This document shows positions 1 to 13,144 of a stretch of DNA of 13,144 nucleotides, piece by piece. The notes beneath the pieces were generated by a model that saw nothing but the letters and a program-made list of their open reading frames with translations, was not told the DNA's origin and ran no database searches. The number at the start of each line of letters is the position of its first letter. Position 1 is the first letter of the stretch. The stretch comes from a virus (lineage: Duplodnaviria; Heunggongvirae; Uroviricota; Caudoviricetes). Location: IMG/VR virus record IMGVR_UViG_2541047722_000003; one strand, written 5' to 3'. The translations under genes and the position numbers were made by a program.

Positions 1-95
1 AAGCAGAAAAAGCTTATTATGCTTCCATCGGAAACGATGATCTGGCAGCCTGAGTTCACAGATAAAACACTCTCCAGGAAACCCGGGGCGGTTCA
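1..95 (+). mobile_element. Partial IS629-like element (IS3 family), right end only; the body lies upstream of the window
   Basis: Positions 1-95 are identical to 6654-6748, the last 95 bp of the complete IS629 copy in this window, ending in the terminal ...GGTTCA. Phage sequence starts at 96. Confidence 0.9.
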
Positions 96-281
96 CCCTT
101 CGTTTTCGCCATCTTCTTCCGCCTTAGCCACTTTTTGCTTCGTTGCGGTTTCTTCAGGAGTTTTTACCCAACCTTTTTTCAGGTGAGATTTAACTTCTTC
201 GTCATCAACAATGATGTAATCGACAGCAAACTGACCGCAGGTGATCATGTTGCCTGGCTTATAGAGCATTGTTCGTGCCAT
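96..281 (-). pseudogene. Small phage gene downstream of the coat gene, 3'-truncated by IS629
   Basis: ATG at 281-279 preceded by a GGGAGAAG Shine-Dalgarno. The frame stays open to the IS junction and the stop (TGA, 95-93) is supplied by the IS629 terminal bases. The 75-aa tracked ORF (93..320) includes an N-terminal extension that overlaps the terminator and is probably not translated. Confidence 0.5.
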
Positions 282-293
282 TGTCTTCTCCCA

Positions 294-316
294 ATAAAAA
301 TGGGGCCGAAGCCCCA
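294..316 (-). terminator. Rho-independent terminator after the coat gene
   Basis: Perfect 6-bp stem (301-306 / 311-316) with a UUCG tetraloop on the minus-strand transcript, followed by UUUUUAUU (complement of 294-300), directly after the coat stop codon. Confidence 0.6.
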
Positions 317-322
317 CCAAAA

Positions 323-1576
323 TTACTGCCCAGCAATAACGATGCCCGTATATTCAGGAACCAGTACAGAGCAACCGTACAGAGTGGTGAAACGCGCAGT
401 GGTTACGCCTTTGATGTGGTCGAAGGAGTAAGACATGATCAGCGTAGCGCCCTGCTCGGTGGTTGCTGTCATTACCTGTGGACCCTGACCAGTTGGGAAC
501 GCCAGTTTGCCGTACATCAGTTCAACAGAACCATCAGCCCAGAACAGGTTAGCAGGTGCTGCGTTCTTGTTGAGAATGGTGATTGCTGCTGATTCTGCCG
601 GTTTGGCATCGACGTTTGCATATGGACGACTCGCAACATCAGTATTTTCAACAGGGAGAATCTTTGGAGAAATTGTTACGGTAGTTCCGCTAACAGCCAG
701 AACACGGAATACCTGCGGTTGACCGGTGGTATCTTTTGTGATCTGGTGTACGGAATTCACACCGGCAATGGTGAACGCATCACCAACCTGCAAGCCAGAT
801 GCAGATACCGTAATAGTCCCCTGTCGGTTATCAACTGGCATACCATTTGAATCTTTCGCTTCAACCTTGTGTTCAGGTTGGCCTGATACTGTCAAGGATT
901 CAGTGCTTCCTTTCGGTAATCGACCAGAAATATCGGTCTTGTAGCTATCGAAGGACGCAACCGGAGGGATTTGCGCTTTTTCGTATGCTGTCAGGGTTGC
1001 GCCCTGAGCATAGGCACGGTGACCAAGCTCGCCAGCAAGGTCTTTGTAGTTGAAGGGGTTCCAGAAAGAGCGACGGTTGATACCCTGAGGTACACCAATC
1101 GCCGTCATGGTGGCATCAATACCTGCCGCACAGTTCCACAAATCACGGCCCTGTGTACCTGCGGTTGAGTCAGCCATCGTGATCACGTTAGTAGCACGCT
1201 GCGTGACCATGGAAATCAGGTCAGAGTCAATCTGTGCAGCAAGGCGCATACCTGCGGCGCGACCAGCTTCAGTTTTATGTTCCGGATCACGCATTTCACG
1301 CGCATCCAGAGTGTACAGAATGTTTTTCGGCTCCTTGAACACTGAAGGAACAAGGCGCTGAACCAGTGCTGTTGGCGTTTTGCTGCTGAGGTCGAGGCCT
1401 TCCTCAATATTCATGTGGTAATGCTGCGGACGATACAGAACATCACCTGCTCGCTGCATTGCTGTATCACCGGGACGGAATTTTTTAGCGTTACGGGAAA
1501 CTACGCAGGCGGCCTCAAAGCCTTCAACGTAGTTTTCGAACATGATTTCAAGGTCTTTTGCTAATTGGTTAGCCAT
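323..1576 (-). CDS. Major capsid (coat) protein, P22 gp5-like
   Basis: 417-aa ORF with a GGAG Shine-Dalgarno 8 nt upstream. Length and several blocks resemble P22-type coat proteins as I recall them (e.g. AKKFRPGDTAMQR, FWNPFNYKDLAG, RPYANVDAKPAESAAITILN...LFWADGSVEL). It sits in the conserved portal-scaffold-coat order. Confidence 0.8.
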   Translation of the reverse strand: MANQLAKDLEIMFENYVEGFEAACVVSRNAKKFRPGDTAMQRAGDVLYRPQHYHMNIEEGLDLSSKTPTALVQRLVPSVFKEPKNILYTLDAREMRDPEHKTEAGRAAGMRLAAQIDSDLISMVTQRATNVITMADSTAGTQGRDLWNCAAGIDATMTAIGVPQGINRRSFWNPFNYKDLAGELGHRAYAQGATLTAYEKAQIPPVASFDSYKTDISGRLPKGSTESLTVSGQPEHKVEAKDSNGMPVDNRQGTITVSASGLQVGDAFTIAGVNSVHQITKDTTGQPQVFRVLAVSGTTVTISPKILPVENTDVASRPYANVDAKPAESAAITILNKNAAPANLFWADGSVELMYGKLAFPTGQGPQVMTATTEQGATLIMSYSFDHIKGVTTARFTTLYGCSVLVPEYTGIVIAGQ

Positions 1577-1594
1577 GCTTAATGCTCCAATAGG

Positions 1595-2488
1595 TTATTT
1601 TTTTGCCTTTTTAGCGGCGAAATACGGCGTCCAGTCACCAGTTTCCAGCGCCTTGGCTTTCAATTTGTCGAGGTTGTTGATTACTGCGCCGTTGCTCCCC
1701 TTAACCGTCGGGGTTGTGGCTGCCGTGGTTTTTGCTTTTGGCATGATTCTGGCCTTCGATTCGATACGTTCCAGCAGACGACCAATTGCTACGGGGTTGG
1801 TAGCTTCTGCCAGTTGCTTGCGCAGTTCAGCGTTGCGACCAAGCGCCAGAACAACGATTTCCGGCTTCTCTGACTCAAACAGGATCGCGTTTTGTGTCTC
1901 GATGGGGATTTCCTCGAGTACGGCCTGCTCAGCTTCCTGATAGCCAGGAACTTTGAGAGCCTTAACACGTTGCTGATATTTGGATAATCGCTCTTGATAG
2001 GCAGCCTGAAGCTCCTGCTCCTTCTGCTTGCGAGCCATCTCCTGTTGCTGGTACTTGCCATTATCCTCTGCCCACTTAGCCATGCGTTGCTGGTAGATTT
2101 CTTCATCGAAACCGATGTCCTCATCATCCAGTTTTGGCATTCGCGGTGGTTGAGTGATTACCGGCTGCTGCTCGACGGGTTTCTGAGACTGACGCATCAG
2201 CTCTTTCAGCTCGCGGTCTTTCTCTTTAATCGTCTTGCGCAGGTGTTTTACCAGTCCATGCTCAGCGCCATCTTCGCTGGTTGGCGAATCCAGCTTTTCG
2301 TCACCAAAGTAGAATTCCTGTTCTGATTCGTCGTCATCAGTTTCAGTAGCCTCCTCTGCATCATTGCCTGAGGACTCACTGCCATCTTCTGTTTCGACTT
2401 TTTCAGCCAGTTCGACATCATCAGGAATCTGCTCTGACGCGTCGGTTTCGATTTCAACTTCTGGTGTGTTTTCTGCCATCTGGTCCAT
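1595..2488 (-). CDS. Scaffolding protein, P22 gp8-like
   Basis: 297-aa highly charged, E/K/Q-rich protein with an acidic N-terminus and a basic C-terminal tail (KLKAKALETGDWTPYFAAKKAKK). Position between portal and coat matches the P22 order. Confidence 0.65.
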   Translation of the reverse strand: MDQMAENTPEVEIETDASEQIPDDVELAEKVETEDGSESSGNDAEEATETDDDESEQEFYFGDEKLDSPTSEDGAEHGLVKHLRKTIKEKDRELKELMRQSQKPVEQQPVITQPPRMPKLDDEDIGFDEEIYQQRMAKWAEDNGKYQQQEMARKQKEQELQAAYQERLSKYQQRVKALKVPGYQEAEQAVLEEIPIETQNAILFESEKPEIVVLALGRNAELRKQLAEATNPVAIGRLLERIESKARIMPKAKTTAATTPTVKGSNGAVINNLDKLKAKALETGDWTPYFAAKKAKK

Positions 2489-2578
2489 TTGTTACCCCTG
2501 TTTACTCGATGTTCAGCCCATCGGAAGGCAATAGGGTGCCAGGCCTCATAAAGACAGCCATTGCACGTTATGGGTTAA

Positions 2579-4777
2579 TTACTGCTGTGGTTGTTGCTGA
2601 GTTGATTTTTGCAGGATGCTGCTGATGTCCATGCGCTGCGCATGGCCCTGTGCCTGACTTTTCAGGACAAGCTCTGCATCAGCACGGGCATTGTCTCCTT
2701 GCTGTTGCTGGAACTGTCCGAGCAGTTTCAGAGCCTCGCGGATATCAGATTTCTGCTGGCTATCGGCAGATGCGAGGATTTTCACAACATTTGCCGCTGC
2801 AACCTGAGCATCAGTCTGTGCCTGGAATGCTTTAACCTGAATGGCTGCCTGCTCGTTCTGCGCTTTCTGCAATTCAGCCTGACCAGCAAGAAGCTGACCT
2901 TGCGCAGCAACCATAGCCGGATCTGGCTGACTGGCCTGTTGTTGTTTCGCCTGCTCAACCATCTGCTGTTCTTCTGGCGTTCTCGGCTTGATAACTCCAG
3001 ACAGAAGCAACTGATTGCGGTTGTATTCTTTAAGGTCGTCCATCCCTTCGCCGTCCATATTGTCGAGGATCATCGACGATACAAGGTCGTGTTTCGGCGT
3101 TCCGGGCGGGATAAGTGCCAGCATGGAAAGTAACGACTTAACCGTTGCGTCACGGCGAGTAGCGAACGACTGACCGACATCGACAGTCACTTCATAGTTA
3201 CCCTGCGAAAGGTCGTTAAGCGCGATAACCTGCCCTGTCTGACGGTCAACCACTTCACCAGTCATCAGCGCCACGTCATCGCTGCCGTCCTCATTAACGA
3301 TACGCATCGGCGTATCGCTGCCATAGACTTCACGAGCCATAGAAAGCCACACAACGCCAGCGCGACGCATGGATTTAGCCATGTTGTCCATGTAGATATA
3401 GGACTGCGTATCCATCCGGTTAAAGATGCTATCAACGGTATCGGTAGCAACGTTGCTCGGCATGTTCTCAAGCTGCGACGCACCTGTAATTTGCTGAATA
3501 GCCGTTCCGGTGTACTGCAATAGCCCGGCAAGAGCTGGAGGCATTTGTGTCGGAGGCGTATAACTGCTGACCTGAGCCTGCGCAGTAATATCTCCGTTTT
3601 TGTTTTTCAGACTGACCATCGGCAGGAACGCCGGGCGCTTTTTGTTGCGCTCCGCCCAATGAGTGGCGAGAGGACCAGGAATCATGTCAACATCAACTAC
3701 AGGAATGCCATCACCGCCAGCCTGAGTAGCGTTATCTGCAATCATGGAAACCATCAGGTTCTCAAGACGCTGTGCATCCATCGCTTTTGCTGCGTGGCCT
3801 TCGATTCGTTCCTGATTATCAACAAATGAGCGACGTCCATATACCGGGATGAGAGGAATATGTTCGCCCGGAATACGCTTCGGTTCTTCCAGCCATTCAG
3901 CGCCAGACAGAAGGCCGCAATAAACGCGGCGTTTCTTCACCGTTCGCTCGCCAATCAGTTCGAATGCACCATCGGTCAGCTCGTCGACAATATCTTTGAT
4001 TTGCTCTTCATCATAGATTGCCGTTTCTCCGCTAACAGGGTTGCGCCATGCCGTGAGCTTCACCTTCTCTATGCGAACTTCGTAGTAGCGCCCAACATAG
4101 ATGGCATCTGGCGTTGACCAGTCATATTGAGTGCCAGTCTCATCACGAGAAAGGCCTGCCGCGATGGAATCAGGGTATTCAGCCTCGAACGCTTTAGGCG
4201 TCATGGAGAACATTTCCATAGCCCACATAGCATCAGAACGGTCATATTGCTTGCTGTCCTGATCGAAGAAGACGCATGTCGCTGGGTCGTAAACAGGAAG
4301 AAGGCTGATGCGTCGCTGCTCGTTACTTGGGTCCATTTCATCTTCGTAATCGGCACACATGCGGAAACAACCGAATCCGCCCGTTACAGCATCATCAAAT
4401 GCGTTATCACACGCTTCGCCACCTGATGTTTCCTGATAGTCAGCGCGGAATTTGCCGTTCATCTTTTTGGCTAACGCTTCCGATGCCTTGTCATCCTTCG
4501 GCCTGAATTTAACGCTGATGCGATTCTGTCGATACTCGCCAATGATGCGATCACATTCACGGGCAATCTTATTCAGTTCAAAGCGCGGGTAATGCTCAAA
4601 CCTGCCTTCATCAAATGAGTAACCAGCGTTTGTGCTGCCTTCCCACTGTGCGCCGGATACCCGGACGAAACGTTGAGCCTCAATAATCTGCTCACGCATA
4701 TCCTGCGTTGCTGACCAGGCATTATCAAAGTTGCACAGCACCTTGCGATGCCAGTCAGTCATCTTTTTTTCTGCCAT
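2579..4777 (-). CDS. Portal protein, P22 gp1-like
   Basis: 732-aa ORF. C-terminal region PRTPEEQQMVEQAKQQQASQPDPAMVAAQGQLLAGQAELQKAQN closely resembles the P22 portal barrel region as recalled. Size and position immediately downstream of large terminase fit. Confidence 0.85.
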   Translation of the reverse strand: MAEKKMTDWHRKVLCNFDNAWSATQDMREQIIEAQRFVRVSGAQWEGSTNAGYSFDEGRFEHYPRFELNKIARECDRIIGEYRQNRISVKFRPKDDKASEALAKKMNGKFRADYQETSGGEACDNAFDDAVTGGFGCFRMCADYEDEMDPSNEQRRISLLPVYDPATCVFFDQDSKQYDRSDAMWAMEMFSMTPKAFEAEYPDSIAAGLSRDETGTQYDWSTPDAIYVGRYYEVRIEKVKLTAWRNPVSGETAIYDEEQIKDIVDELTDGAFELIGERTVKKRRVYCGLLSGAEWLEEPKRIPGEHIPLIPVYGRRSFVDNQERIEGHAAKAMDAQRLENLMVSMIADNATQAGGDGIPVVDVDMIPGPLATHWAERNKKRPAFLPMVSLKNKNGDITAQAQVSSYTPPTQMPPALAGLLQYTGTAIQQITGASQLENMPSNVATDTVDSIFNRMDTQSYIYMDNMAKSMRRAGVVWLSMAREVYGSDTPMRIVNEDGSDDVALMTGEVVDRQTGQVIALNDLSQGNYEVTVDVGQSFATRRDATVKSLLSMLALIPPGTPKHDLVSSMILDNMDGEGMDDLKEYNRNQLLLSGVIKPRTPEEQQMVEQAKQQQASQPDPAMVAAQGQLLAGQAELQKAQNEQAAIQVKAFQAQTDAQVAAANVVKILASADSQQKSDIREALKLLGQFQQQQGDNARADAELVLKSQAQGHAQRMDISSILQKSTQQQPQQ

Positions 4778-4778
4778 A

Positions 4779-5438
4779 TCAACCTACACCACAAGGAATT
4801 GAGTAACTGGAATAGTCGGGTTGCGCAGCCGACTCCGGGCAATGCATACACATCATCAGCGCATCAGCCAGGTTAGGAGATGGGATACCGAGCTTCTGCT
4901 TCATTTCGACCTTAGTCATAAGCTCCAGTTTCCCGTTATTATTGAATTTGCGCTGAATCTGCGTCAGTTCTGCAAACAGTTTCTCCAGCATCTTCTCGCC
5001 TATCGCTTCTTTGTCGAAGCTCAGCATGTCGTCGGGGTCTGCATACTCACCGTGGACAACCGCCCGATATGTCAGATACAGCCTGTCAGCCAGCGCGTAA
5101 TAGAATTGCGCTCGCTTATTGCGGAATACATCGCCAATAGTGCGAACGTTGTCACCCTGTACGACTTCATCAGCCCATGCTCCGGCCTGATACGGAGCAT
5201 CTTCATCGAATGGCGATTCGCTGCCCTTGAACATCGTGGCGGTAATTTTCTTGCCGGAGAATGCTTCCGTTGTCTGTCTGCGTAGCCCTGCACCGACACC
5301 ATCGCCATCCCACAGGTAATGGTCAGCGCCGTCTTCAATCGCCAGCGAAGTAGCCCAGTCAGCACCCTCGTTGATGTCCATCAGCAGACCTTCGGCAATG
5401 CGCTTAACTACCGAACCGTGACGCGATGCATAACCTTT
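4779..5438 (-). pseudogene. Large terminase subunit, C-terminal fragment, separated from its N-terminal part by IS629
   Basis: Phage-derived reading frame of 219 codons from 5438 to the TGA at 4779-4781. The first 31 residues of the tracked ORF (5439-5531) are read-through into the IS629 left end. The frame is continuous with the 6749..7508 fragment once the IS and one target duplication (1314 bp) are removed. Confidence 0.8.
5435..5438. repeat. IS629 target-site duplication, left copy (CTTT)
   Basis: CTTT immediately precedes the IS (TG at 5439-5440) and CTTT at 6749-6752 immediately follows its last base (CA at 6747-6748). Confidence 0.7.
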
Positions 5439-5492
5439 TGAACCGCCCCGGGAATCCTGGAGACTAAACTTCCTGAGAAAGAGGTAAACAGG

Positions 5493-5819
5493 ATGACTAA
5501 AAATACTCGTTTTTCCCCCGAAGTCCGTCAACGGGCAGTCCGTATGGTTCTGGAAAGTCAGAGCGAATATGACTCACAATGGGCGACAATTTGTTCCATT
5601 GCTCCAAAGATTGGCTGTACGCCGGAGACTCTGCGTGTCTGGGTTCGCCAGCATGAGCGGGATACCGGGGGCGGTGATGGAGGGCTCACCACCGCTGAAC
5701 GTCAGCGTCTGAAAGAGCTGGAACGTGAAAATCGTGAACTGCGCCGCAGTAACGATATCCTTCGCCAGGCTTCCGCTTATTTTGCGAAGGCGGAGTTCGA
5801 CCGCCTCTGGAAAAAATGA
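5493..5819 (+). CDS. IS629 OrfA (transposase N-terminal helix-turn-helix component)
   Basis: 108-aa ORF with a GAGG Shine-Dalgarno. The sequence [22 protein letters not shown]...[33 protein letters not shown] has the leucine-zipper-like end typical of IS3-family OrfA. Confidence 0.9.
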
Positions 5820-6706
5820 TGCCACTGCTGGATAAGCTGCGTGAGCAGTACGGGGTCGGACCGCTATGCAGCGAACTGCATATTGCCCCGTCAACGTATT
5901 ACCACTGTCAGCAACAGCGACATCATCCGGATAAACGCAGTGCCCGTGCGCAGCGCGATGACTGGCTGAAGAAAGAGATACAGCGCGTATACGATGAAAA
6001 TCACAAGGTATACGGTGTGCGTAAAGTCTGGCGTCAGTTGTTACGGGAAGGTATCAGAGTGGCCAGATGCACTGTGGCACGTCTCATGGCGGTTATGGGA
6101 CTTGCCGGTGTTCTCCGGGGTAAAAAGGTCCGTACGACCATCAGCCGGAAAGCCGTTGCCGCAGGCGACCGCGTAAACCGTCAGTTCGTGGCAGAACGAC
6201 CTGACCAGCTGTGGGTGGCTGATTTTACTTACGTCAGCACATGGCGGGGCTTCGTCTATGTGGCGTTCATCATTGATGTGTTTGCCGGATACATCGTGGG
6301 GTGGCGGGTCTCATCGTCCATGGAAACGACATTCGTGCTGGATGCACTGGAGCAGGCGTTATGGGCCCGTCGACCGTCCGGCACGGTCCATCACAGTGAT
6401 AAAGGTTCTCAGTATGTATCGCTGGCCTACACACAGCGGCTTAAGGAAGCCGGATTACTGGCATCAACAGGAAGTACAGGCGACTCGTATGACAACGCGA
6501 TGGCGGAGAGCATCAATGGTCTTTACAAAGCGGAGGTAATACACCGTAAGAGCTGGAAAAACCGTGCAGAAGTGGAACTGGCCACACTCACGTGGGTGGA
6601 CTGGTATAACAATCGACGATTGCTGGAAAGGCTGGGCCATACTCCTCCGGCAGAAGCAGAAAAAGCTTATTATGCTTCCATCGGAAACGATGATCTGGCA
6701 GCCTGA
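5816..6706 (+). CDS. IS629 OrfB (transposase catalytic DDE domain), expressed as an OrfAB fusion by -1 frameshift
   Basis: 296-aa ORF in the -1 frame relative to orfA, overlapping the orfA stop at the A-rich stretch tggAAAAAAtga (5808-5819). Contains DDE-type integrase motifs ([23 protein letters not shown]). Confidence 0.9.
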
Positions 6707-6748
6707 GTTCACAGATAAAACACTCTCCAGGAAACCCGGGGCGGTTCA

Positions 6749-6752
6749 CTTT
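6749..6752. repeat. IS629 target-site duplication, right copy (CTTT)
   Basis: Identical to 5435-5438 and directly abuts the IS629 right terminus. Confidence 0.7.
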
Positions 6753-7508
6753 AGCATCTGGCCCTGTATCTGATGGGTCATGCGCAGAGACAACAGCGCC
6801 TTTCGCTTTCCATCCGAGTTTCTTGTGCGCATCGGTTGCGGCTTCAAGCCATTCACGTTTGATGATTGCCATATCACTTGCGCTTACTGGCTCACCAAGC
6901 CAGATGTGACGATACAGTGTCGGGTTTCTGCGTTTACACTCTTCCATCTCCAGACGGAGAACTTCAGGAAAGTGCGGGTTGTCGGTGTAGTTCACCGTCA
7001 GCAGACAAATATCATCGGGAGGGTTTACTACGAATCGCTGATAGGTATCGTCGAGGATGTTTTTCGGGTTGAAGCTCACCCATATTTCGGAAAATGGCTT
7101 GCGGATGGTTGGTATCAGGATATCCCATGATTCCTTCGTTACCGCTTCCGCTTCCTCCACCCAGCAGATATCAATGCCTTCGAGCGATTTAATCTTCGTC
7201 GGGTTGTTTTTGATGCCGTAGAACATGAACTCAGCATTCGTCCCGAGATGACGAATCATGGAACGCTGAATTTCAAACTCAGCCGTATACCCTTCACGCT
7301 CTATGGTGTCTTCAAGCAGCCGGATTACCGAATCGCTGATACTGTTTTGCAGTTCACGAGCGCAGAGAATACGCACTGGCTGCCGACGCGCCGCTTCAAC
7401 AAGCAGTCTCGCAATTGCCCATGATTTACCGCTACCTCGACCGCCTTTGGCGACTTTGTAGCGATGCGCCTCAATGAACGGTTCAAAGATAGGATTAATC
7501 GAGGTCAT
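6749..7508 (-). pseudogene. Large terminase subunit, N-terminal ATPase fragment, interrupted by IS629
   Basis: ATG at 7508 overlaps the terS stop. Walker A-like motif KGGRGSGKS near the N-terminus. About 253 phage-derived codons, then the frame runs into the IS629 right end (the last 53 residues of the tracked 306-aa ORF are IS-encoded). Confidence 0.85.
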
Positions 7509-7945
7509 TTTCCGAATAGAGTACTCATCGGTGATGTTTCAATCTGGATTGCGCCGCCGTCTTTGCCTGTTAGCTCGTGATCAACCTTGTCGCGCCATTT
7601 ATCCTTCTGTCGGTTCTTAAGCCAGAAGATGGCAGCTGTTGTATCAGGCGGGTAATACTTCTCAAGAGGAGTTTCGACAATTCTGTTTTCAATAACACGA
7701 ATATCGATGTCTGGAGCCACGAAGCCCATAGCGCGTTGATAAAGACGGTCACTAACTTCTGCATCAGCGACGGCCTTACCCTTTTTTATGGACTCCGAAA
7801 ACTCAGGATAATCAAGCTTCCACTTGTTAATAGTTGACTCACTGACTTCGAAGAAATCAGCAAGCTCTGCATCGGTGTAGCCCAGCAAGCACAGTTTGCG
7901 TGCCTGTTCGGCATACGCCTCTTGATACTTTGTTGGGCGCGCCAT
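7505..7945 (-). CDS. Small terminase subunit
   Basis: 146-aa ORF immediately upstream of and overlapping large terminase by 4 bp. The N-terminal segment (MARPTKYQEAYAEQARKLCLLGYTDAELADFFEVSESTINKWK) resembles the helix-turn-helix region of phage small terminase families as recalled. Confidence 0.75.
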   Translation of the reverse strand: MARPTKYQEAYAEQARKLCLLGYTDAELADFFEVSESTINKWKLDYPEFSESIKKGKAVADAEVSDRLYQRAMGFVAPDIDIRVIENRIVETPLEKYYPPDTTAAIFWLKNRQKDKWRDKVDHELTGKDGGAIQIETSPMSTLFGK

Positions 7946-7947
7946 GT

Positions 7948-8190
7948 TTATGCTCCGGTGGTGAACAGGTCTAACGCTTCCTTCGATTTACGCACCGCTT
8001 CGATAGTGCGGGTCGTGATATCTGAATTAGCGCCGCCTGACTGGAAGTGAATTTTGAATAGCTCAAGCTTCAGTTCGTCAGTGCCAATGAACTGAAATGC
8101 TTCCTCTGCGGCTGCGTTCTGGTTCATGACCAGCTTGTAAATCTCTAACTGGAATTTCTGTTCTTCAGTCATGGGAATAATCTCTGCCAT
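7948..8190 (-). CDS. Hypothetical phage protein (80 aa) upstream of terS
   Basis: ORF with a GGAG Shine-Dalgarno 8 nt upstream of the ATG at 8190-8188, tightly packed against terS. No recognisable motif. Confidence 0.5.
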   Translation of the reverse strand: MAEIIPMTEEQKFQLEIYKLVMNQNAAAEEAFQFIGTDELKLELFKIHFQSGGANSDITTRTIEAVRKSKEALDLFTTGA

Positions 8191-8225
8191 TGTTGGCTCC
8201 GTTTATCCGTTAAAAGGGATATCAG

Positions 8226-8229
8226 TTAA
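8226..8229. repeat. IS5 target-site duplication, left copy (TTAA)
   Basis: TTAA at 8226-8229 and at 9425-9428 directly flank the 16-bp IS5 terminal inverted repeats. Fits the known YTAR target preference. Confidence 0.75.
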
Positions 8230-9424
<1,195 letters not shown>

Positions 9425-9428
9425 TTAA
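9425..9428. repeat. IS5 target-site duplication, right copy (TTAA)
   Basis: See left copy. Confidence 0.75.
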
Positions 9429-9445
9429 CTGTGAATAATCCATTG

Positions 9446-9622
9446 TCATTTCCTCGCACGATGTCTTAGCAACCGGATATCCCACAGGTGAGCCGTGTAG
9501 TTGAAGGTTTTTACGTCAGATTCTTTTGGGATTGGCTTGCGTTTATTTCTGGTGCGTTTCGTTGGAAGGTATTTGCAGTTTTCGCAGATGATGTCGGTGA
9601 TACTTCGTCGCTGTCGCCTCAT
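9446..9622 (-). CDS. Small basic protein (58 aa), possibly NinE-like
   Basis: ATG at 9622-9620 overlaps the ninB stop (ATGA coupling) and is preceded by an AGGAGG Shine-Dalgarno. Very basic, with a single CxxC (CENC). Tentative NinE-like assignment rests only on size, position after ninB and vague sequence recollection. Confidence 0.55.
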
Positions 9623-10029
9623 TCGTACCTCCTGTCGGTAAATCTGACACCCTGACCAATAGCCCATGCTGTTGTGTACTCGATCAGACTTGCCATACGC
9701 TTCACACTCATCTGCGCGCTGCTTTCGCGAATGTTGACGTATTCGCCTTCAAGCCCGGGCAAAACATCAGCTTCCTGTTTTGTTGCCACTGCATGACCGC
9801 TGATCAACAAAACCTTCCATTGTTCTGGTTTTAACCATTTATCGCGCCACTGAACTTGCCTAGCGATATCTGCGACCATCGCGTGAAATTTTGCGTTCTG
9901 GTCAAGGTTGCGCTTGTAGTCAGTAATGCGGATGGTGACTGGCTTGTCTTTATCGAGTGGTGTTGCGAGGATGGCATTTATTGCAGCTTGCTGTTGTTGC
10001 TTAGTTCGGAGGAATATTGTTTGCTTCAC
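9619..10029 (-). CDS. ninB: NinB-like recombination protein (lambda Orf family)
   Basis: 136-aa ORF with a GTG start at 10029 preceded by an AAGGAG Shine-Dalgarno. The block [26 protein letters not shown] parallels the SLDQNRKLWACLGDVSRQVEWHGRWL block of lambda NinB as recalled. Position downstream of the replication genes fits. Confidence 0.7.
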
Positions 10030-10040
10030 TGAATACTCCT

Positions 10041-10226
10041 TTATTTTTTATGCCTGTAACCCCATTCTTCCAGCAACCTTGCGGCGTACCACCCAAGAAA
10101 CAAAGGAAAGAACATTACAATGAGATATTTCCCGCCACGGTCAATGTTCGAAATTGACCAGATTACGATGTAACCAGTGCAGGACAGGAATATTACAAAC
10201 CCCAAAAAGCTACTTCGTCGACTCAT
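10041..10226 (-). CDS. Small membrane protein (about 61 aa, two predicted transmembrane segments), function unknown
   Basis: ATG at 10226-10224 with an AAGGAG Shine-Dalgarno 5 nt upstream; the tracked GTG at 10232 is too close to that Shine-Dalgarno. Two hydrophobic stretches (FLGFVIFLSCTGYIVIWSI and YLIVMFFPLFLGWYAARLL) and a charged C-terminus (EEWGYRHKK). Confidence 0.55.
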   Translation of the reverse strand: MSRRSSFLGFVIFLSCTGYIVIWSISNIDRGGKYLIVMFFPLFLGWYAARLLEEWGYRHKK

Positions 10227-10228
10227 GC

Positions 10229-10543
10229 TCACTCCTTCACTTTGATTCCAGCGGCGCGGATAGCCTCTACATCGCTTTCGTATTGCGATTCTGCACCTGA
10301 GTCATAGCCAATGTGATAATCACCGGGAAGTGGGCCTTTCTTTGGCTTTTGCAGCTCAATTTCAATAGCTGCTCTCGATGCCTGCCACGTTTGCCAGTGG
10401 CCTTGAACATCGTCCATCACGTATTGACCACCAATATCACCACTGCCAATTTCATGGTGATTTTCAGGGTAACGGATAAGGTCTGAAGATTCGCCCCCCA
10501 CGTCGTAACCAACTCTCTTCAAACTGGCATCTGCTTTCGTCAT
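10229..10543 (-). CDS. Hypothetical acidic protein (104 aa) with an internal GYD-x-G-(A/G)ES repeat; may be the downstream part of a frameshifted gene
   Basis: ORF with a weak ribosome-binding site whose first 80 nt overlap the preceding Cys-rich ORF in another frame. Contains repeated VGYDVGGESSD / IGYDSGAESQYESD motifs and a net acidic charge. Confidence 0.4.
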   Translation of the reverse strand: MTKADASLKRVGYDVGGESSDLIRYPENHHEIGSGDIGGQYVMDDVQGHWQTWQASRAAIEIELQKPKKGPLPGDYHIGYDSGAESQYESDVEAIRAAGIKVKE

Positions 10544-10646
10544 CTTTCATAAGGCAGTCACATTCAATAAAAATCGGCTCTCCCCAAGGAGTAGAACCTC
10601 CGCTATCACACATTCCTGTGTTATTGCACTTTTGGCACTTGCTCAC
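10464..10646 (-). CDS. Small Cys-rich protein (60 aa), putative zinc-binding, function unknown
   Basis: GTG start at 10646 with a GGAGG Shine-Dalgarno 5 nt upstream. Six cysteines including CQKC and CDC pairs. The 3' end overlaps the 104-aa ORF across a C6/G6 homopolymer (10494-10499). Confidence 0.5.
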   Translation of the reverse strand: MSKCQKCNNTGMCDSGGSTPWGEPIFIECDCLMKDDESRCQFEESWLRRGGRIFRPYPLP

Positions 10647-10658
10647 ATTAACCTCCGA

Positions 10659-10865
10659 TTAACTCACAAAACGCCACGCCACTTTTGCTACGACAACAGG
10701 CATAACACCGATAATCACCCACAGAAAAATGCTACCGAAAAGCACACCAACCAGGTCTTTACCTTCGCCTACCAACCGGACAAAACTGCTGGCAACCACA
10801 ATGAACGTCGCCACCATCCACATAGCACCGAGAATCCTCAATGCAGAAAAAATCAACTCAACCAC
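10659..10865 (-). CDS. Small membrane protein (68 aa, two predicted transmembrane segments), function unknown
   Basis: GTG start at 10865 preceded by a GGGGGAGGG Shine-Dalgarno. Almost entirely hydrophobic (LIFSALRILGAMWMVATFIVVASSF ... VLFGSIFLWVIIGVMPVVVA). First gene after the tR2-like terminator. Confidence 0.5.
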   Translation of the reverse strand: MVELIFSALRILGAMWMVATFIVVASSFVRLVGEGKDLVGVLFGSIFLWVIIGVMPVVVAKVAWRFVS

Positions 10866-10880
10866 GATTTACCCTCCCCC

Positions 10881-10911
10881 AAATAAAAAGGCCTGCGATT
10901 ACCAGCAGGCC
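10881..10911 (-). terminator. Rho-independent terminator downstream of the helicase gene (lambda tR2 equivalent)
   Basis: 7-bp perfect stem GGCCTGC (10890-10896) / GCAGGCC (10905-10911) with an 8-nt loop, followed on the minus-strand transcript by UUUUUAUUU (complement of 10881-10889). Confidence 0.65.
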
Positions 10912-10937
10912 TGTTACAAGCTCAGTGATGTAGATGG

Positions 10938-12314
10938 TCATACGTCAGCCCCTTGTGCATATCGTCTGCCACGCGCAGCAGGTGCATTTGATGCTGTGCA
11001 AATCTGTCTGGCTTCATCCTGGTCACATGCAACAAAGTGTCCGTTGCAGAACCGCTGGTAAACCGTACCAAGTGAGCCAAAACGGTTTTTCGTCACGATG
11101 ATTTCAGCAAATGGCGCGGCGCTACTGTTCTCGTCATATACCGCTTCCCGATAGAGCATGATGATTGAGTCTGCGTCCTGTTCAATGCTTCCTGAATCAC
11201 GCAAATCTGCGTTTGTCGGGCGTTTGTTTGGTCGCTTCTCAACATCGCGTGAAAGCTGACTCAGGGAAATAACCGGTGTTTTCAGGTCTTTCGCCATCGC
11301 CTTCAGGCTTCCGGAGATGTGAGCAATTGCGAGGTCGTTGCGGTCTGCTTTCGGCTTCTCAATCAGGCCAAGATAATCCGCCATGATGAGTGAGAGGTTT
11401 GGATTTTCCTGTTTGTGCCGTTCTGCGATTGAGCGTATTTCTTCGACCGATAATCGCGAGGCATCGACTACCCATACATCCAAATCTGCAAGCTGACTCA
11501 TGCCGTTAGCAACACGTGCCCAGCCCTCGTCATCCATCGATGCAGGATTTCGCAGTACGCTAACCGACATCCTCCCGGCGTTGGCAATGCTTCGCTCTGC
11601 AATCTGCAATGCGCTCATTTCCATTGAGAAAATCAATACCCCGCGCCGGACGTCAGAACCAGGAATAACGCGGCTTGCAACGCCTTCGGCAATCTTCAGC
11701 GCCAGTTCGGTTTTCCCCATACCAGGACGAGCAGCGATTATCACCAGGTCTTCCGCGTTCATCCCTCCGGTGATGGCATCAAGTTCTTCGATTCCGGTCT
11801 TCAGGGTATCGGACTCTTCTCCGTTCCTCAGACGCCTGTCAAGCGTGTCAGTGTAGTCGGTGATGATTTCCCCTAACCGTACAGGTTTAACCTCGTCACG
11901 GGGCTTTCTGATGGCTGAGAGACGTTTTACAAGTTCATCCATCGCCTGACTCGATGCGTCGATGGTTCCGCTTTGGATTGGTTCACGCATTTCATCCATG
12001 ATTTCCAGCACCAGACGGCGGTGATAGTTATCCGCGACCATTCCGGCATATCCCTTCAGGTTTGCGGCGCTCGGGCAGTTTTTGCTGGTCATCAGGATTG
12101 ACGTGAAATGCTCCTCTCCGCACGCCTCGGCAACCATCAGCGCGTCGATTAGGTTTCTGTTTCTCGCCTGCTTCCGGATAACCTCGAAGGCTTTCCGGTA
12201 GAGCGGAATTGAAAACGCTTCCGGCTCCAGCGTTGCAAGAACGTCACTGGCGGTTGGAGTTAATCCACCAATCAGCAGGCCACCGATAACGCTCGCTTCG
12301 ATATCCTGTCTCAT
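10938..12314 (-). CDS. Replicative DNA helicase, DnaB-like (P22 gene 12 type)
   Basis: 458-aa ORF. Walker A ARPGMGKT, then LIFSMEMS, and an [12 protein letters not shown]...[21 protein letters not shown] block typical of DnaB-family helicases. ATG overlaps the stop of the upstream replication gene (ATGA). Confidence 0.88.
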
Positions 12315-13042
12315 GCAATCCCCCTGTCTGCAAACTTCCCTTCCCGAACTCCCGTTAACGAGTCTTCTCTCAGCAGGTAATCAAAATCAGCCGTCCAGCC
12401 CGTGTCGTTGTCTCCGAAGTAAAACGGCTTGGCCTGATGCACAAACGCCCTGACATACGCTCTGAAACCGTCCACGTTTGGCGTTTTCAGTTGCGGGATG
12501 ATTTTCTTCAGGCGGCGTTTTCGTTTCTCGTTGACCGCAACAGCGTGTGGCAGTCTGTCACCGACTTCGGTGTTGTAGGCGTTCAGGAAGGATTCGTAGT
12601 CGATTCGTTCTGCCTTGCGACGTTCAGGTTTAACCTGCCCATCGCCTCCCCCATTGGGGGGTAGGGGGGTATTATTTATATTCTTGTTAATACCTTCTTG
12701 TTCATGATGTGCGGTTGTTTGTGCGGCTTCATGTGCGCTTTCATGTGCGGCATGTACGCTGAAAGCCGCGCTATTGCTGGCTTCATCATGTGCGGCATCA
12801 TGTGCGGTTGTTTGTGCGGCTTCATGTGCGGGTAAATTGTCCATTTTTTGAGCATATTCATGGTAATTTGTGATGGTTATCACACGGCCTTTTTGCTTCT
12901 CTCCATCAATGGAGATCATCCCCTCTTTCACAAAAACCTGAAGCATCCGCTCAACCTGATCACGGCTTGCTGGCTTGCCATGTCTGTCGCATAACTGAAG
13001 ACCTAAATCAGCTGCTGTCACAACCAGTTGACCGGGTTGCAG
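12311..13042 (-). pseudogene. Replication initiator (lambda O / P22 gene 18-like), 5'-truncated by IS629
   Basis: The frame is open from the IS629 junction (13042) down to the TGA at 12311-12313 with no stop; the tracked GTG at 13021 is probably not the native start. Contains an embedded iteron array and an adjacent AT-rich tract, as in the lambdoid ori-within-O arrangement. Translationally coupled to the helicase. Confidence 0.6.
12703..12831. repeat. Putative origin-of-replication iteron array inside the initiator gene
   Basis: Nine copies of a 12-bp unit with core (C/T)ATGTGCGG in two blocks (12703-12759 and 12784-12831), including a 35-bp higher-order repeat (12705-12739 vs 12797-12831, 2 mismatches). 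Followed in the direction of transcription by an AT-rich tract (12671-12700) and a G/C-rich run (12655-12669). Confidence 0.6.
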
Positions 13043-13144
13043 TGAACCGCCCCGGGTTTCCTGGAGAGTGTTTTATCTGTGAACTCAGGCTGCCAGATCA
13101 TCGTTTCCGATGGAAGCATAATAAGCTTTTTCTGCTTCTGCCGG
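13043..13144 (-). mobile_element. Partial IS629-like element, right end in inverted orientation; the body lies downstream of the window
   Basis: The reverse complement of 13043-13144 is identical to 6647-6748 of the complete IS629 copy. Begins with the terminal TGAACC and abuts the truncated replication gene. Confidence 0.9.

Follow-up and report, generated by a model that had tools for sequence, protein, structure and literature searches.

A CUS-3-like Escherichia coli prophage contig with three simple IS629 insertions and an IS5-linked deletion

Results

The 13,144-nt stretch of DNA that we analysed (the window) is very probably a repeat-bounded contig of an ordinary decaying CUS-3-like prophage that carries three simple IS629 insertions and an IS5-linked deletion. 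Its edges are assembly gaps inside IS629 copies and not biological ends, as the window is exactly one contig between two N-runs of scaffold KE699353.1, which belongs to the mate-pair-scaffolded draft E. coli genome GCA_000456885.1. On the segment of this scaffold that we retrieved (L003), the reverse complement of the window occupies positions 4365-17508, flanked by N-runs at 3170-4364 (1,195 N, to the right of the window) and 17509-18908 (1,400 N, to its left). The window begins and ends with identical IS ends of 95 and 102 bp because the assembler stopped at the multicopy IS629, and the tail and immunity genes are missing from it because the contig stops at these repeat-induced gaps.

Next to the right gap, the scaffold resumes with 258 bp of an IS629 left end (IRL), and next to the left gap with 95 bp of one, both 100% identical to the complete copy in the middle of the window. 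Outside these ends it is colinear with the FY26 reference prophage (L001) at 100% identity, matching positions 30963-33873 on the right and 15007-11280 on the left. The genes called beyond the right gap are an N-terminal fragment of rep_O (Phage_rep_O), cII, cro and an S24-type repressor, and those called beyond the left gap are P22_Tail-4 (154 aa), gene 10, DUF2824 and gp7. Since the scaffold is colinear, the window is adjoined by the immunity region as well as by additional genes for head completion and DNA ejection. A 1,310-bp IS629 needs 950 bp in the right gap and 1,120 bp in the left one, while the estimated gaps of 1,195 and 1,400 N exceed these values by ~250-280 bp; such an excess is ordinary for scaffolds and proves nothing, and each gap probably holds just the remainder of one IS629. 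The links across both gaps rest on the read pairs of the original assembler. Recombination between identical IS copies would keep every junction sequence unchanged; judged by sequence alone, an inverted isomer may exist as a minority form, or the scaffolding may be in error.

The only complete IS629-group element of the window, 1,310 bp long, lies at 5439-6748 on the plus strand and contains orfA (5493-5819) and orfB (5816-6706), which overlap. It is flanked by the target duplication CTTT (5435-5438 and 6749-6752), and its 25-nt ends are 92% complementary, which confirmed a ~1.3-kb element with imperfect terminal inverted repeats. The IS3 transposase model NF033516 matches both orfA (profile 1-86) and orfB (profile 93-369, E = 1e-93), the Pfam domains HTH_Tnp_1 and rve are found in these ORFs, and RefSeq copies identical to the element carry a programmed frameshift annotation. 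The published primers IS629-insideF and IS629-insideR match it at 5697-5718 and 6458-6477 with 0 and 1 mismatch, respectively. The window element thus has in common with the IS629/IS1203 group of the IS3 family its length of 1,310 bp, its terminal inverted repeats (TGAACCGCCCCGGG...), the orfA/orfB arrangement with a frameshift, the 3-4 bp duplications, the primer matches and a location within a prophage. Many plasmids and chromosomes carry copies that match it at 100% identity; the plasmid and RefSeq annotations of identical copies read only 'IS3 family transposase', without an IS629 label, and PGAP labels some of its relatives 'IS1203 family'. The name that we use for it is meant at the level of the IS629 group, within which IS629 sensu stricto and its isoform IS1203 would be taken together. 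An isoform of this group at 96.3% identity sits in the corresponding prophage of strain E10. In O157 genomes, 62% of the IS629 copies have been located within prophages or prophage-like elements (PMC3271280).

The two other copies are represented in the window by their right (IRR) ends. The left one, at 1-95 on the plus strand (element positions 1216-1310), is 100% identical to 6654-6748 and abuts the 1,400-N gap; the target-site duplication CCC follows it at 96-98, with the second copy beyond the gap next to IRL, as we determined by reading both junctions of this IS629 against the uninterrupted reference GAGATCACCCTTCG. The right one is inverted, at 13043-13144 on the minus strand (element positions 1310 down to 1209), and abuts the 1,195-N gap; its target-site duplication CAG is found at 13040-13042, again with the second copy beyond the gap next to IRL. 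Congruently, 1-96 is a direct repeat of 6654-6749 with 100% identity, 13041-13144 is complementary to 6647-6750 at 100%, and 1-96 is complementary to 13042-13137. The initial annotation had placed the IS629 ends at 95 and 13043 and considered them identical to the copy in the terminase gene, and our comparison agrees on both points. CTTT, CCC and CAG are each present only once in the uninterrupted reference, so that all three IS629 copies have generated 3-4 bp duplications. All three are simple insertions, and nothing indicates a deletion, an inversion or a composite unit between them.

We then located each insertion within the phage genes. The left IS629 lies in gene 4 (P22_Tail-4, head completion), whose first 5 codons are at 98-112 on the minus strand and whose remainder lies beyond the left IS629 gap; reference gene 4 spans L001 14559-15020 and the insertion corresponds to reference positions 15004-15006. 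Gene 4, and not the small gene downstream of coat that had been reported as truncated, is the gene cut on this side. That small gene (93-281, minus strand) is complete and encodes a 62-aa product identical to the protein of intact prophages, the terminal 3 nt of IS629 (TCA) restoring its TGA stop; the protein, present in thousands of intact prophages, appears in 28,783 index blocks, and its look-up brought up other genomes only. The middle IS629 divides the large terminase gene (terL; L001 19687-21102 in the reference) into an N-terminal part of ~252 codons at 6749-7508 (TIGR01547 profile 1-237) and a C-terminal part, from ~codon 253, at 4779-5438 (profile 256-396), both on the minus strand. 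The N-terminal part reads into IS629 as a 306-aa ORF (6588-7508), and this fusion is on record in one contig only, that of the source scaffold. The right IS629 interrupts the O-like replication initiator gene, as was first proposed, leaving its C-terminal 243 codons at 12311-13042 on the minus strand and its N-terminal 52 codons beyond the IS; the reference gene spans L001 30234-31121 with the insertion at 30963-30965. The earlier description of the genes at the two edges as truncated is misleading, given that both continue beyond the IS copies. 12-bp iteron-like repeats occur in the O-like segment at 12703-12831. When the 243-aa O fragment was looked up, the single match was an unrelated short metagenome contig.

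The remaining phage genes of the window, all on the minus strand, comprise the P22-type major capsid (coat) protein (323-1576, 417 aa, Pfam P22_CoatProtein, 100% identical to the reference), the scaffold protein (1595-2488, 297 aa, from its ORF and the CUS-3 annotation) and the portal protein (2579-4777, 732 aa, ORF with Pfam P22_portal), all three intact, followed by the small terminase subunit (7505-7945, 146 aa, ORF and CUS-3 annotation) and a small DUF2560/hkbM gene of 80 aa (7948-8190). Further along lie ninE (9446-9622) and ninB (9619-10029), with Pfam matches to NinE and NinB and coordinates mapped from L001, and an intact DnaB-type replicative helicase (P) of 458 aa (10938-12314). Terminase_3, P22_portal, scaffold, P22_CoatProtein and P22_Tail-4 appear in the Pfam search in the order of a P22-type head module, and by these sequence features the prophage classifies as CUS-3-like and P22-like (Lederbergvirus).

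Comparison with related prophages supported this assignment. The window blocks 93-5438, 6749-8230 and 9424-13042 are all colinear with the FY26 reference at 100% identity, and between these blocks the window departs from the reference only by the IS629, together with its CTTT duplication, and by an IS5 in place of 5.5 kb. The shared parts are likewise 100% identical in the NCTC11151 prophage, while identity to CUS-3 itself (CP000711.1) is 99.4% over the shared parts, in blocks covering 70% of the window; part of the nin/ninA region of the window differs from that type record. CUS-3 and its ST95-type relatives (APEC O1, S88, FY26, NCTC11151) have the same order of O, P, nin, terminases, portal, scaffold, coat and gene 4. 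Unlike them, the copy studied here is interrupted by IS629 in gene 4, terL and O and is devoid of ~5.5 kb (Rha through ninX) at the IS5. CUS-3 is a P22-like, K1-specific prophage that occupies the interval between dsdC and argW in E. coli RS218; phages like CUS-3 have been described as 'prone to decay', with neuO kept through decay (PMC9659370). In E10 and FY26 the prophage context is argW / intS ... torI / dsdC, with the endosialidase tailspike and neuO present; by analogy with these two reference genomes, the source prophage is probably integrated at argW-dsdC as well.

The IS5 at 8230-9424 (minus strand, transposase at 8376-9392) has the 1,195 bp, the GGAAGGTGCGAATAAG-type ends, the IS5-family transposase (NF033581, E = 1.8e-109) and the 4-bp TTAA flanks (8226-8229 and 9425-9428) of IS5. 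The TTAA flanks fit the sequence YTAR, which we take to be the IS5 target (ISfinder). Unlike those of a simple IS5 insertion, however, they are sites that have 5.5 kb between them in the intact phage; since they are two distinct sites rather than one duplicated site, the IS5 marks a deletion. Window positions 8230 and 9424 equal L001 21824 and 27347, so that ~5.52 kb of the reference has been replaced, with the loss of Rha, Rz/Rz1, endolysin, holin, Q, ninH, rus, hkbD, roi/KilAC, ninF and most of ninX. This IS5-linked loss, on which the initial annotation was silent, is the only real deletion in the region, and the lysis genes are missing because of IS5, IS629 not being responsible.

Finally, we searched 5,426 complete E. 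coli genomes with 120-bp queries spanning the four IS junctions, and all four junctions were absent from them when both sides were required at high identity. For one junction query, 12 places at 81% coverage turned out to be IS-in-IS matches of 88% identity that represent another junction. Matches to the whole window at 91% and 80% (H1 and H2) reflected no more than other nearby IS copies. A terL::IS629 allele common to other assemblies was also considered, since 72 index blocks contain the 200-aa C-terminal ORF; probes for the exact junction gave no match, and mapping showed that the assemblies with this ORF carry a different insertion 30 bp away.

Discussion

Our results outline a simple history for this prophage. 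IS629 very probably inserted three times independently, in gene 4 (codon 5/6), terL (codon ~253) and the O-like gene (codon ~52), each time making its own 3-4-bp target duplication without disturbing the order of the phage genes. In a separate change, an IS5 came to join two TTAA sites 5.5 kb apart, which cost the phage the lysis cassette, several nin genes and Q, its late-gene activator; this probably happened through recombination of two inserted IS5 copies or through a deletion next to an IS5. The resulting prophage is predicted to be unable to replicate, package, activate late genes or lyse.

The bracketing of the window by inverted IS629 ends had initially been read as a sign of IS-mediated deletion or inversion, or of a composite-like 12.9-kb unit. 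In the first case, recombination between IS629 copies would have inverted or deleted prophage DNA, and the window would be a rearranged remnant from which the tail and immunity modules were lost. Three 100%-identical copies, two direct and one inverted, suit such recombination, and the interiors of the flanking copies fall within the gaps, which makes the links dependent on scaffolding. We nevertheless regard this as very unlikely, as on both sides the scaffold follows the order of the intact reference, at 100% identity, every IS629 has matched target duplications in that order (CCC/CCC and CAG/CAG at the edges), immunity, head-completion and DNA-ejection genes stand directly beyond the gaps, and the one deletion of the region has IS5, not IS629, at its boundary. 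That the 12.9-kb segment and two inverted IS629 copies moved together as a composite transposon is scarcely credible. Inverted IS copies do flank a DNA segment, but a composite transposon should show one duplication outside the IS pair and unrelated DNA beyond it, whereas the inner flank of each IS629 here equals its outer flank and the interrupted phage genes simply run on outside, at 100% identity to the reference; moreover, both segment-facing ends are IRR, as expected from two independent insertions in opposite orientation. The other IS ends, their duplications, the continuing genes and the immunity region, whose presence outside the window had been named as counting against an IS629-bounded unit, were all found there, and the idea is therefore unsupported; of the complete prophage looked for alongside them, the lysis genes are missing.

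The window taken alone has just replication, nin and head genes, which could recall a capsid-encoding phage satellite. This reading is practically inconceivable to us: the corresponding parts of a full-length CUS-3-like prophage match this content at 100% identity, the same scaffold carries head-completion, DNA-ejection and immunity genes right next to it, and the module is limited by assembly gaps, where a satellite would be self-contained, with an integrase and ends of its own. The preference already given to a decaying P22-like prophage over a satellite is borne out by the window being, IS changes aside, colinear with an intact CUS-3-like prophage at 100% identity.

The decaying CUS-3-like prophage described here adds one more K1-associated case to its kind, hit at four independent points (the O-like gene, the terminase, gene 4 and the Q/lysis region). 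As earlier work already documents IS629 insertion into prophages, deletions linked to IS elements and decay among CUS-3-like phages, the biological weight of this case is small. Its lesson is one of method: when both ends of a window lie in one and the same multicopy IS, a repeat-bounded contig is the first thing to suspect, and here the inspection of the parent scaffold settled the bracketing question.

A further idea, which we consider rather unlikely, is that IS629-group elements insert into CUS-3-like prophages non-randomly, at local hot spots. If true, this would suggest that the IS629 transposase targets particular regions or structures; as an alternative to targeting, prophage knock-out may have been selected repeatedly while cargo such as neuO was kept. 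Across six assemblies, we counted ~10 distinct IS629-group insertion sites in this prophage type. In terL, two insertions that arose independently share their orientation and are separated by 30 bp, and between arc and a clpP-like gene two isoforms (100% and 96.3% identical to the window copy) occupy sites 1 bp apart in opposite orientation.

Prophage identity and origin of the window edges

Comparing the same prophage in related strains, as the initial annotation had proposed, we found that the three non-IS blocks of the window (93-5438, 6749-8230 and 9424-13042) match the FY26 prophage locus (L001) at 15001-20346, 20343-21824 and 27347-30965, each with 100% identity. The non-IS parts likewise match the NCTC11151 prophage at 100% identity; identity is 99.8% for the copies in APEC O1, S88 and many ST95-type strains and 99.4% for CUS-3, the P22-like Lederbergvirus of E. 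coli RS218. In complete genomes this prophage is located with tRNA-Arg (argW)/intS on one side and torI/dsdC on the other, and carries a tailspike gene (annotated as endosialidase in FY26) and an acyltransferase gene adjoining intS; the CUS-3 site is likewise between dsdC and argW (PMC9659370). The integration site in the source genome was inferred from these references because the retrieved scaffold locus did not include the tailspike/neuO/integrase end.

The ORF that fuses terminase and IS sequence (6588-7508) is recorded in one contig only, KE699353.1 (GCA_000456885.1; 622,599 bp). The reverse complement of the window corresponds exactly to 4365-17508 of the 20.9-kb locus retrieved from this scaffold (L003), where it is abutted by runs of 1,195 N (3170-4364) and 1,400 N (17509-18908). 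The window is therefore a single contig of the scaffold that stops at a multicopy repeat left unresolved by the assembler, which accounts for the identical IS termini of roughly 100 bp at its two edges. The segment bracketed by IS629 ends, as it had been described, is thus a by-product of contig boundaries. The gap estimates, within which the IS interiors are N, exceed the completion of a 1,310-bp IS629 by about 250-280 bp, probably through estimation error.

IS629 copies and their target duplications

The middle copy (5439-6748; 1,310 bp) is internal to the window and has imperfect 25-nt terminal inverted repeats beginning TGAACCGCCCCGGG. Its two ORFs (5493-5819 and 5816-6706) jointly span the IS3-family transposase model NF033516, and primers specific for IS629 (published by Ooka; used in PMC3271280) match it at 5697-5718 with no mismatch and at 6458-6477 with one. 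Judging by its length, inverted repeats, ORFs and primer matches, we accepted it as an IS629-group element, a name at group level that does not tell the isoforms IS629 and IS1203 apart. A repeat scan of the window bore out the claimed identity of the IS ends at both edges with this copy: 1-96 is a direct repeat of 6654-6749 (100% identical), 13041-13144 is 100% complementary to 6647-6750, and 1-96 is complementary to 13042-13137.

Past the window edges, a check that had also been proposed, the scaffold supplies the opposite IS629 ends: 258 bp of left end on the right-hand side, 100% identical to the middle copy, and 95 bp of left end on the left-hand side. The right copy is joined as ...GGCATCTG/TGAACC before the IS left end and GGTTCA/CTGCAACC after its right end, with CAG (window orientation) at both ends and a single occurrence in the uninterrupted reference, GGGTTGCAG/ATGCC. 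The left copy has CCC at both ends, where the reference reads GAGATCACCCTTCG, and the middle copy is flanked by a 4-bp duplication, CTTT (reference AACCTTTAGC). Beyond both junctions the scaffold is colinear with the reference at 100% identity (L001 30963-33873 and 15007-11280), with a rep_O N-terminal fragment, cII, cro and an S24-type repressor gene past one gap and P22_Tail-4 (gene 4), gene 10, a 233-aa gene, DUF2824 and gp7 past the other.

Because the inner flank equals the outer flank for each IS and the same phage DNA lies outside, the three copies look like independent simple transpositions. These same features are incompatible with a composite transposon and rule out the composite-transposon-like unit suggested by the initial annotation. 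Identical IS629 copies could recombine with every junction sequence unaltered, giving a minority inversion isomer, and for this reason the colinear linkage across the gaps depends on the read pairs of the assembler; between the copies the scaffold follows the reference order, which shows no sign of the IS629-mediated deletion or inversion previously considered.

IS5 and the associated deletion

An IS5 of 1,195 bp (8230-9424), absent from the initial annotation, has ends of the GGAAGGTGCGAATAAG type and a transposase matching the IS5-family model (E = 1.8e-109). The tetranucleotide TTAA, which fits the preferred IS5 target, YTAR, adjoins each of its ends (8226-8229 and 9425-9428). In the reference these TTAAs are two distinct sites (L001 21820-21823 and 27348-27351), and therefore about 5.52 kb was lost; the genes removed are Rha, Rz/Rz1, endolysin, holin, the Q antiterminator, ninH, rus, hkbD/ybcO, roi/KilAC, ninF and most of ninX. 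The window shows no real deletion other than this IS5-linked loss. It may have arisen when two inserted IS5 copies recombined with each other, or when IS5 acted intramolecularly on the second TTAA; both routes fit, and we make no choice between them.

Interrupted genes and state of the prophage

The small gene after coat (93-281, minus strand; 62 aa), which had been described as truncated, is intact. The left IS629 lies directly after its last sense codon, and because the terminal trinucleotide of IS629 (TCA; window 93-98 junction) equals the displaced phage bases forming the TGA stop, the stop is re-formed and the ORF unchanged; intact prophages encode an identical protein. The gene cut on the left is gene 4, with its ATG at 112-110 and 5 codons left in the window. 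Beyond the gap, gene 4 is called at 154 aa vs. 153 aa, the gene caller running into the IS left end. The truncation of the initiator on the right held in part: IS629 splits this O-like gene after about codon 52, but the rep_O N-terminal fragment continues beyond the gap. The middle copy splits the large terminase gene at about codon 253.

The retained C-terminal initiator fragment contains two clusters of 12-bp repeats (12703-12831; consensus CATCATGTGCGG / TGTGCGGCTTCA, about seven units), the pattern to be expected if a lambdoid origin with its iterons lay within the initiator gene.

Because the initiator, large terminase and gene 4 are broken and Q and the lysis genes are entirely absent, we infer that the source prophage is incapable of completing the lytic cycle; the earlier view of a defective, decaying prophage holds. 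Overall, this is an ordinary IS-disrupted CUS-3-like prophage; phages of this type have been described as prone to decay (PMC9659370), and in O157 genomes 62% of IS629 copies are in prophages or prophage-like elements (PMC3271280). For a phiTE_015-family gene (10229-10550), the annotation of both reference prophages, FY26 and E10, records a frameshift, and the source scaffold has two separate ORF calls of 104 and 61 aa; this pseudogene therefore appears older than the IS events.

IS629-group insertions in related prophages

A search of 5,426 complete genomes of E. coli with the IS5 left junction and the three IS629 junctions of the window retrieved no genome carrying any of the four. Other assemblies (OZ040768.1, KI538675.1 and two short contigs) carry an IS629-group insertion in terL that has the orientation of the window's copy and lies 30 bp away from it (L005 8665-9974, L007 8608-9974, L012 1-29 and L013 1-139; reference L001 20313-20315). 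Its target duplication is TTA, and it is independent of the insertion in the window. Given some ten insertions across 40 kb of prophage, we estimate the chance of such proximity at roughly 3-7%. Further IS629-group sites in the same prophage of other assemblies are in the coat gene, upstream of ninB, in the ejection-protein genes and in the tailspike gene. Together with the pair described next, these insertions hint at a local target preference in CUS-3-like prophages, with ancestry uncontrolled.

The interval between arc and a clpP-like gene holds different IS629-group isoforms in FY26 (L001 4368-5677; 100% identical to the window copy) and in E10 (L002 10001-11310; 96.3%), oppositely oriented and with target sites separated by 1 bp. 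Their duplications, GCC and CCC, fall within TTATGCCCTGTT, and this interval may be an insertion hot spot.
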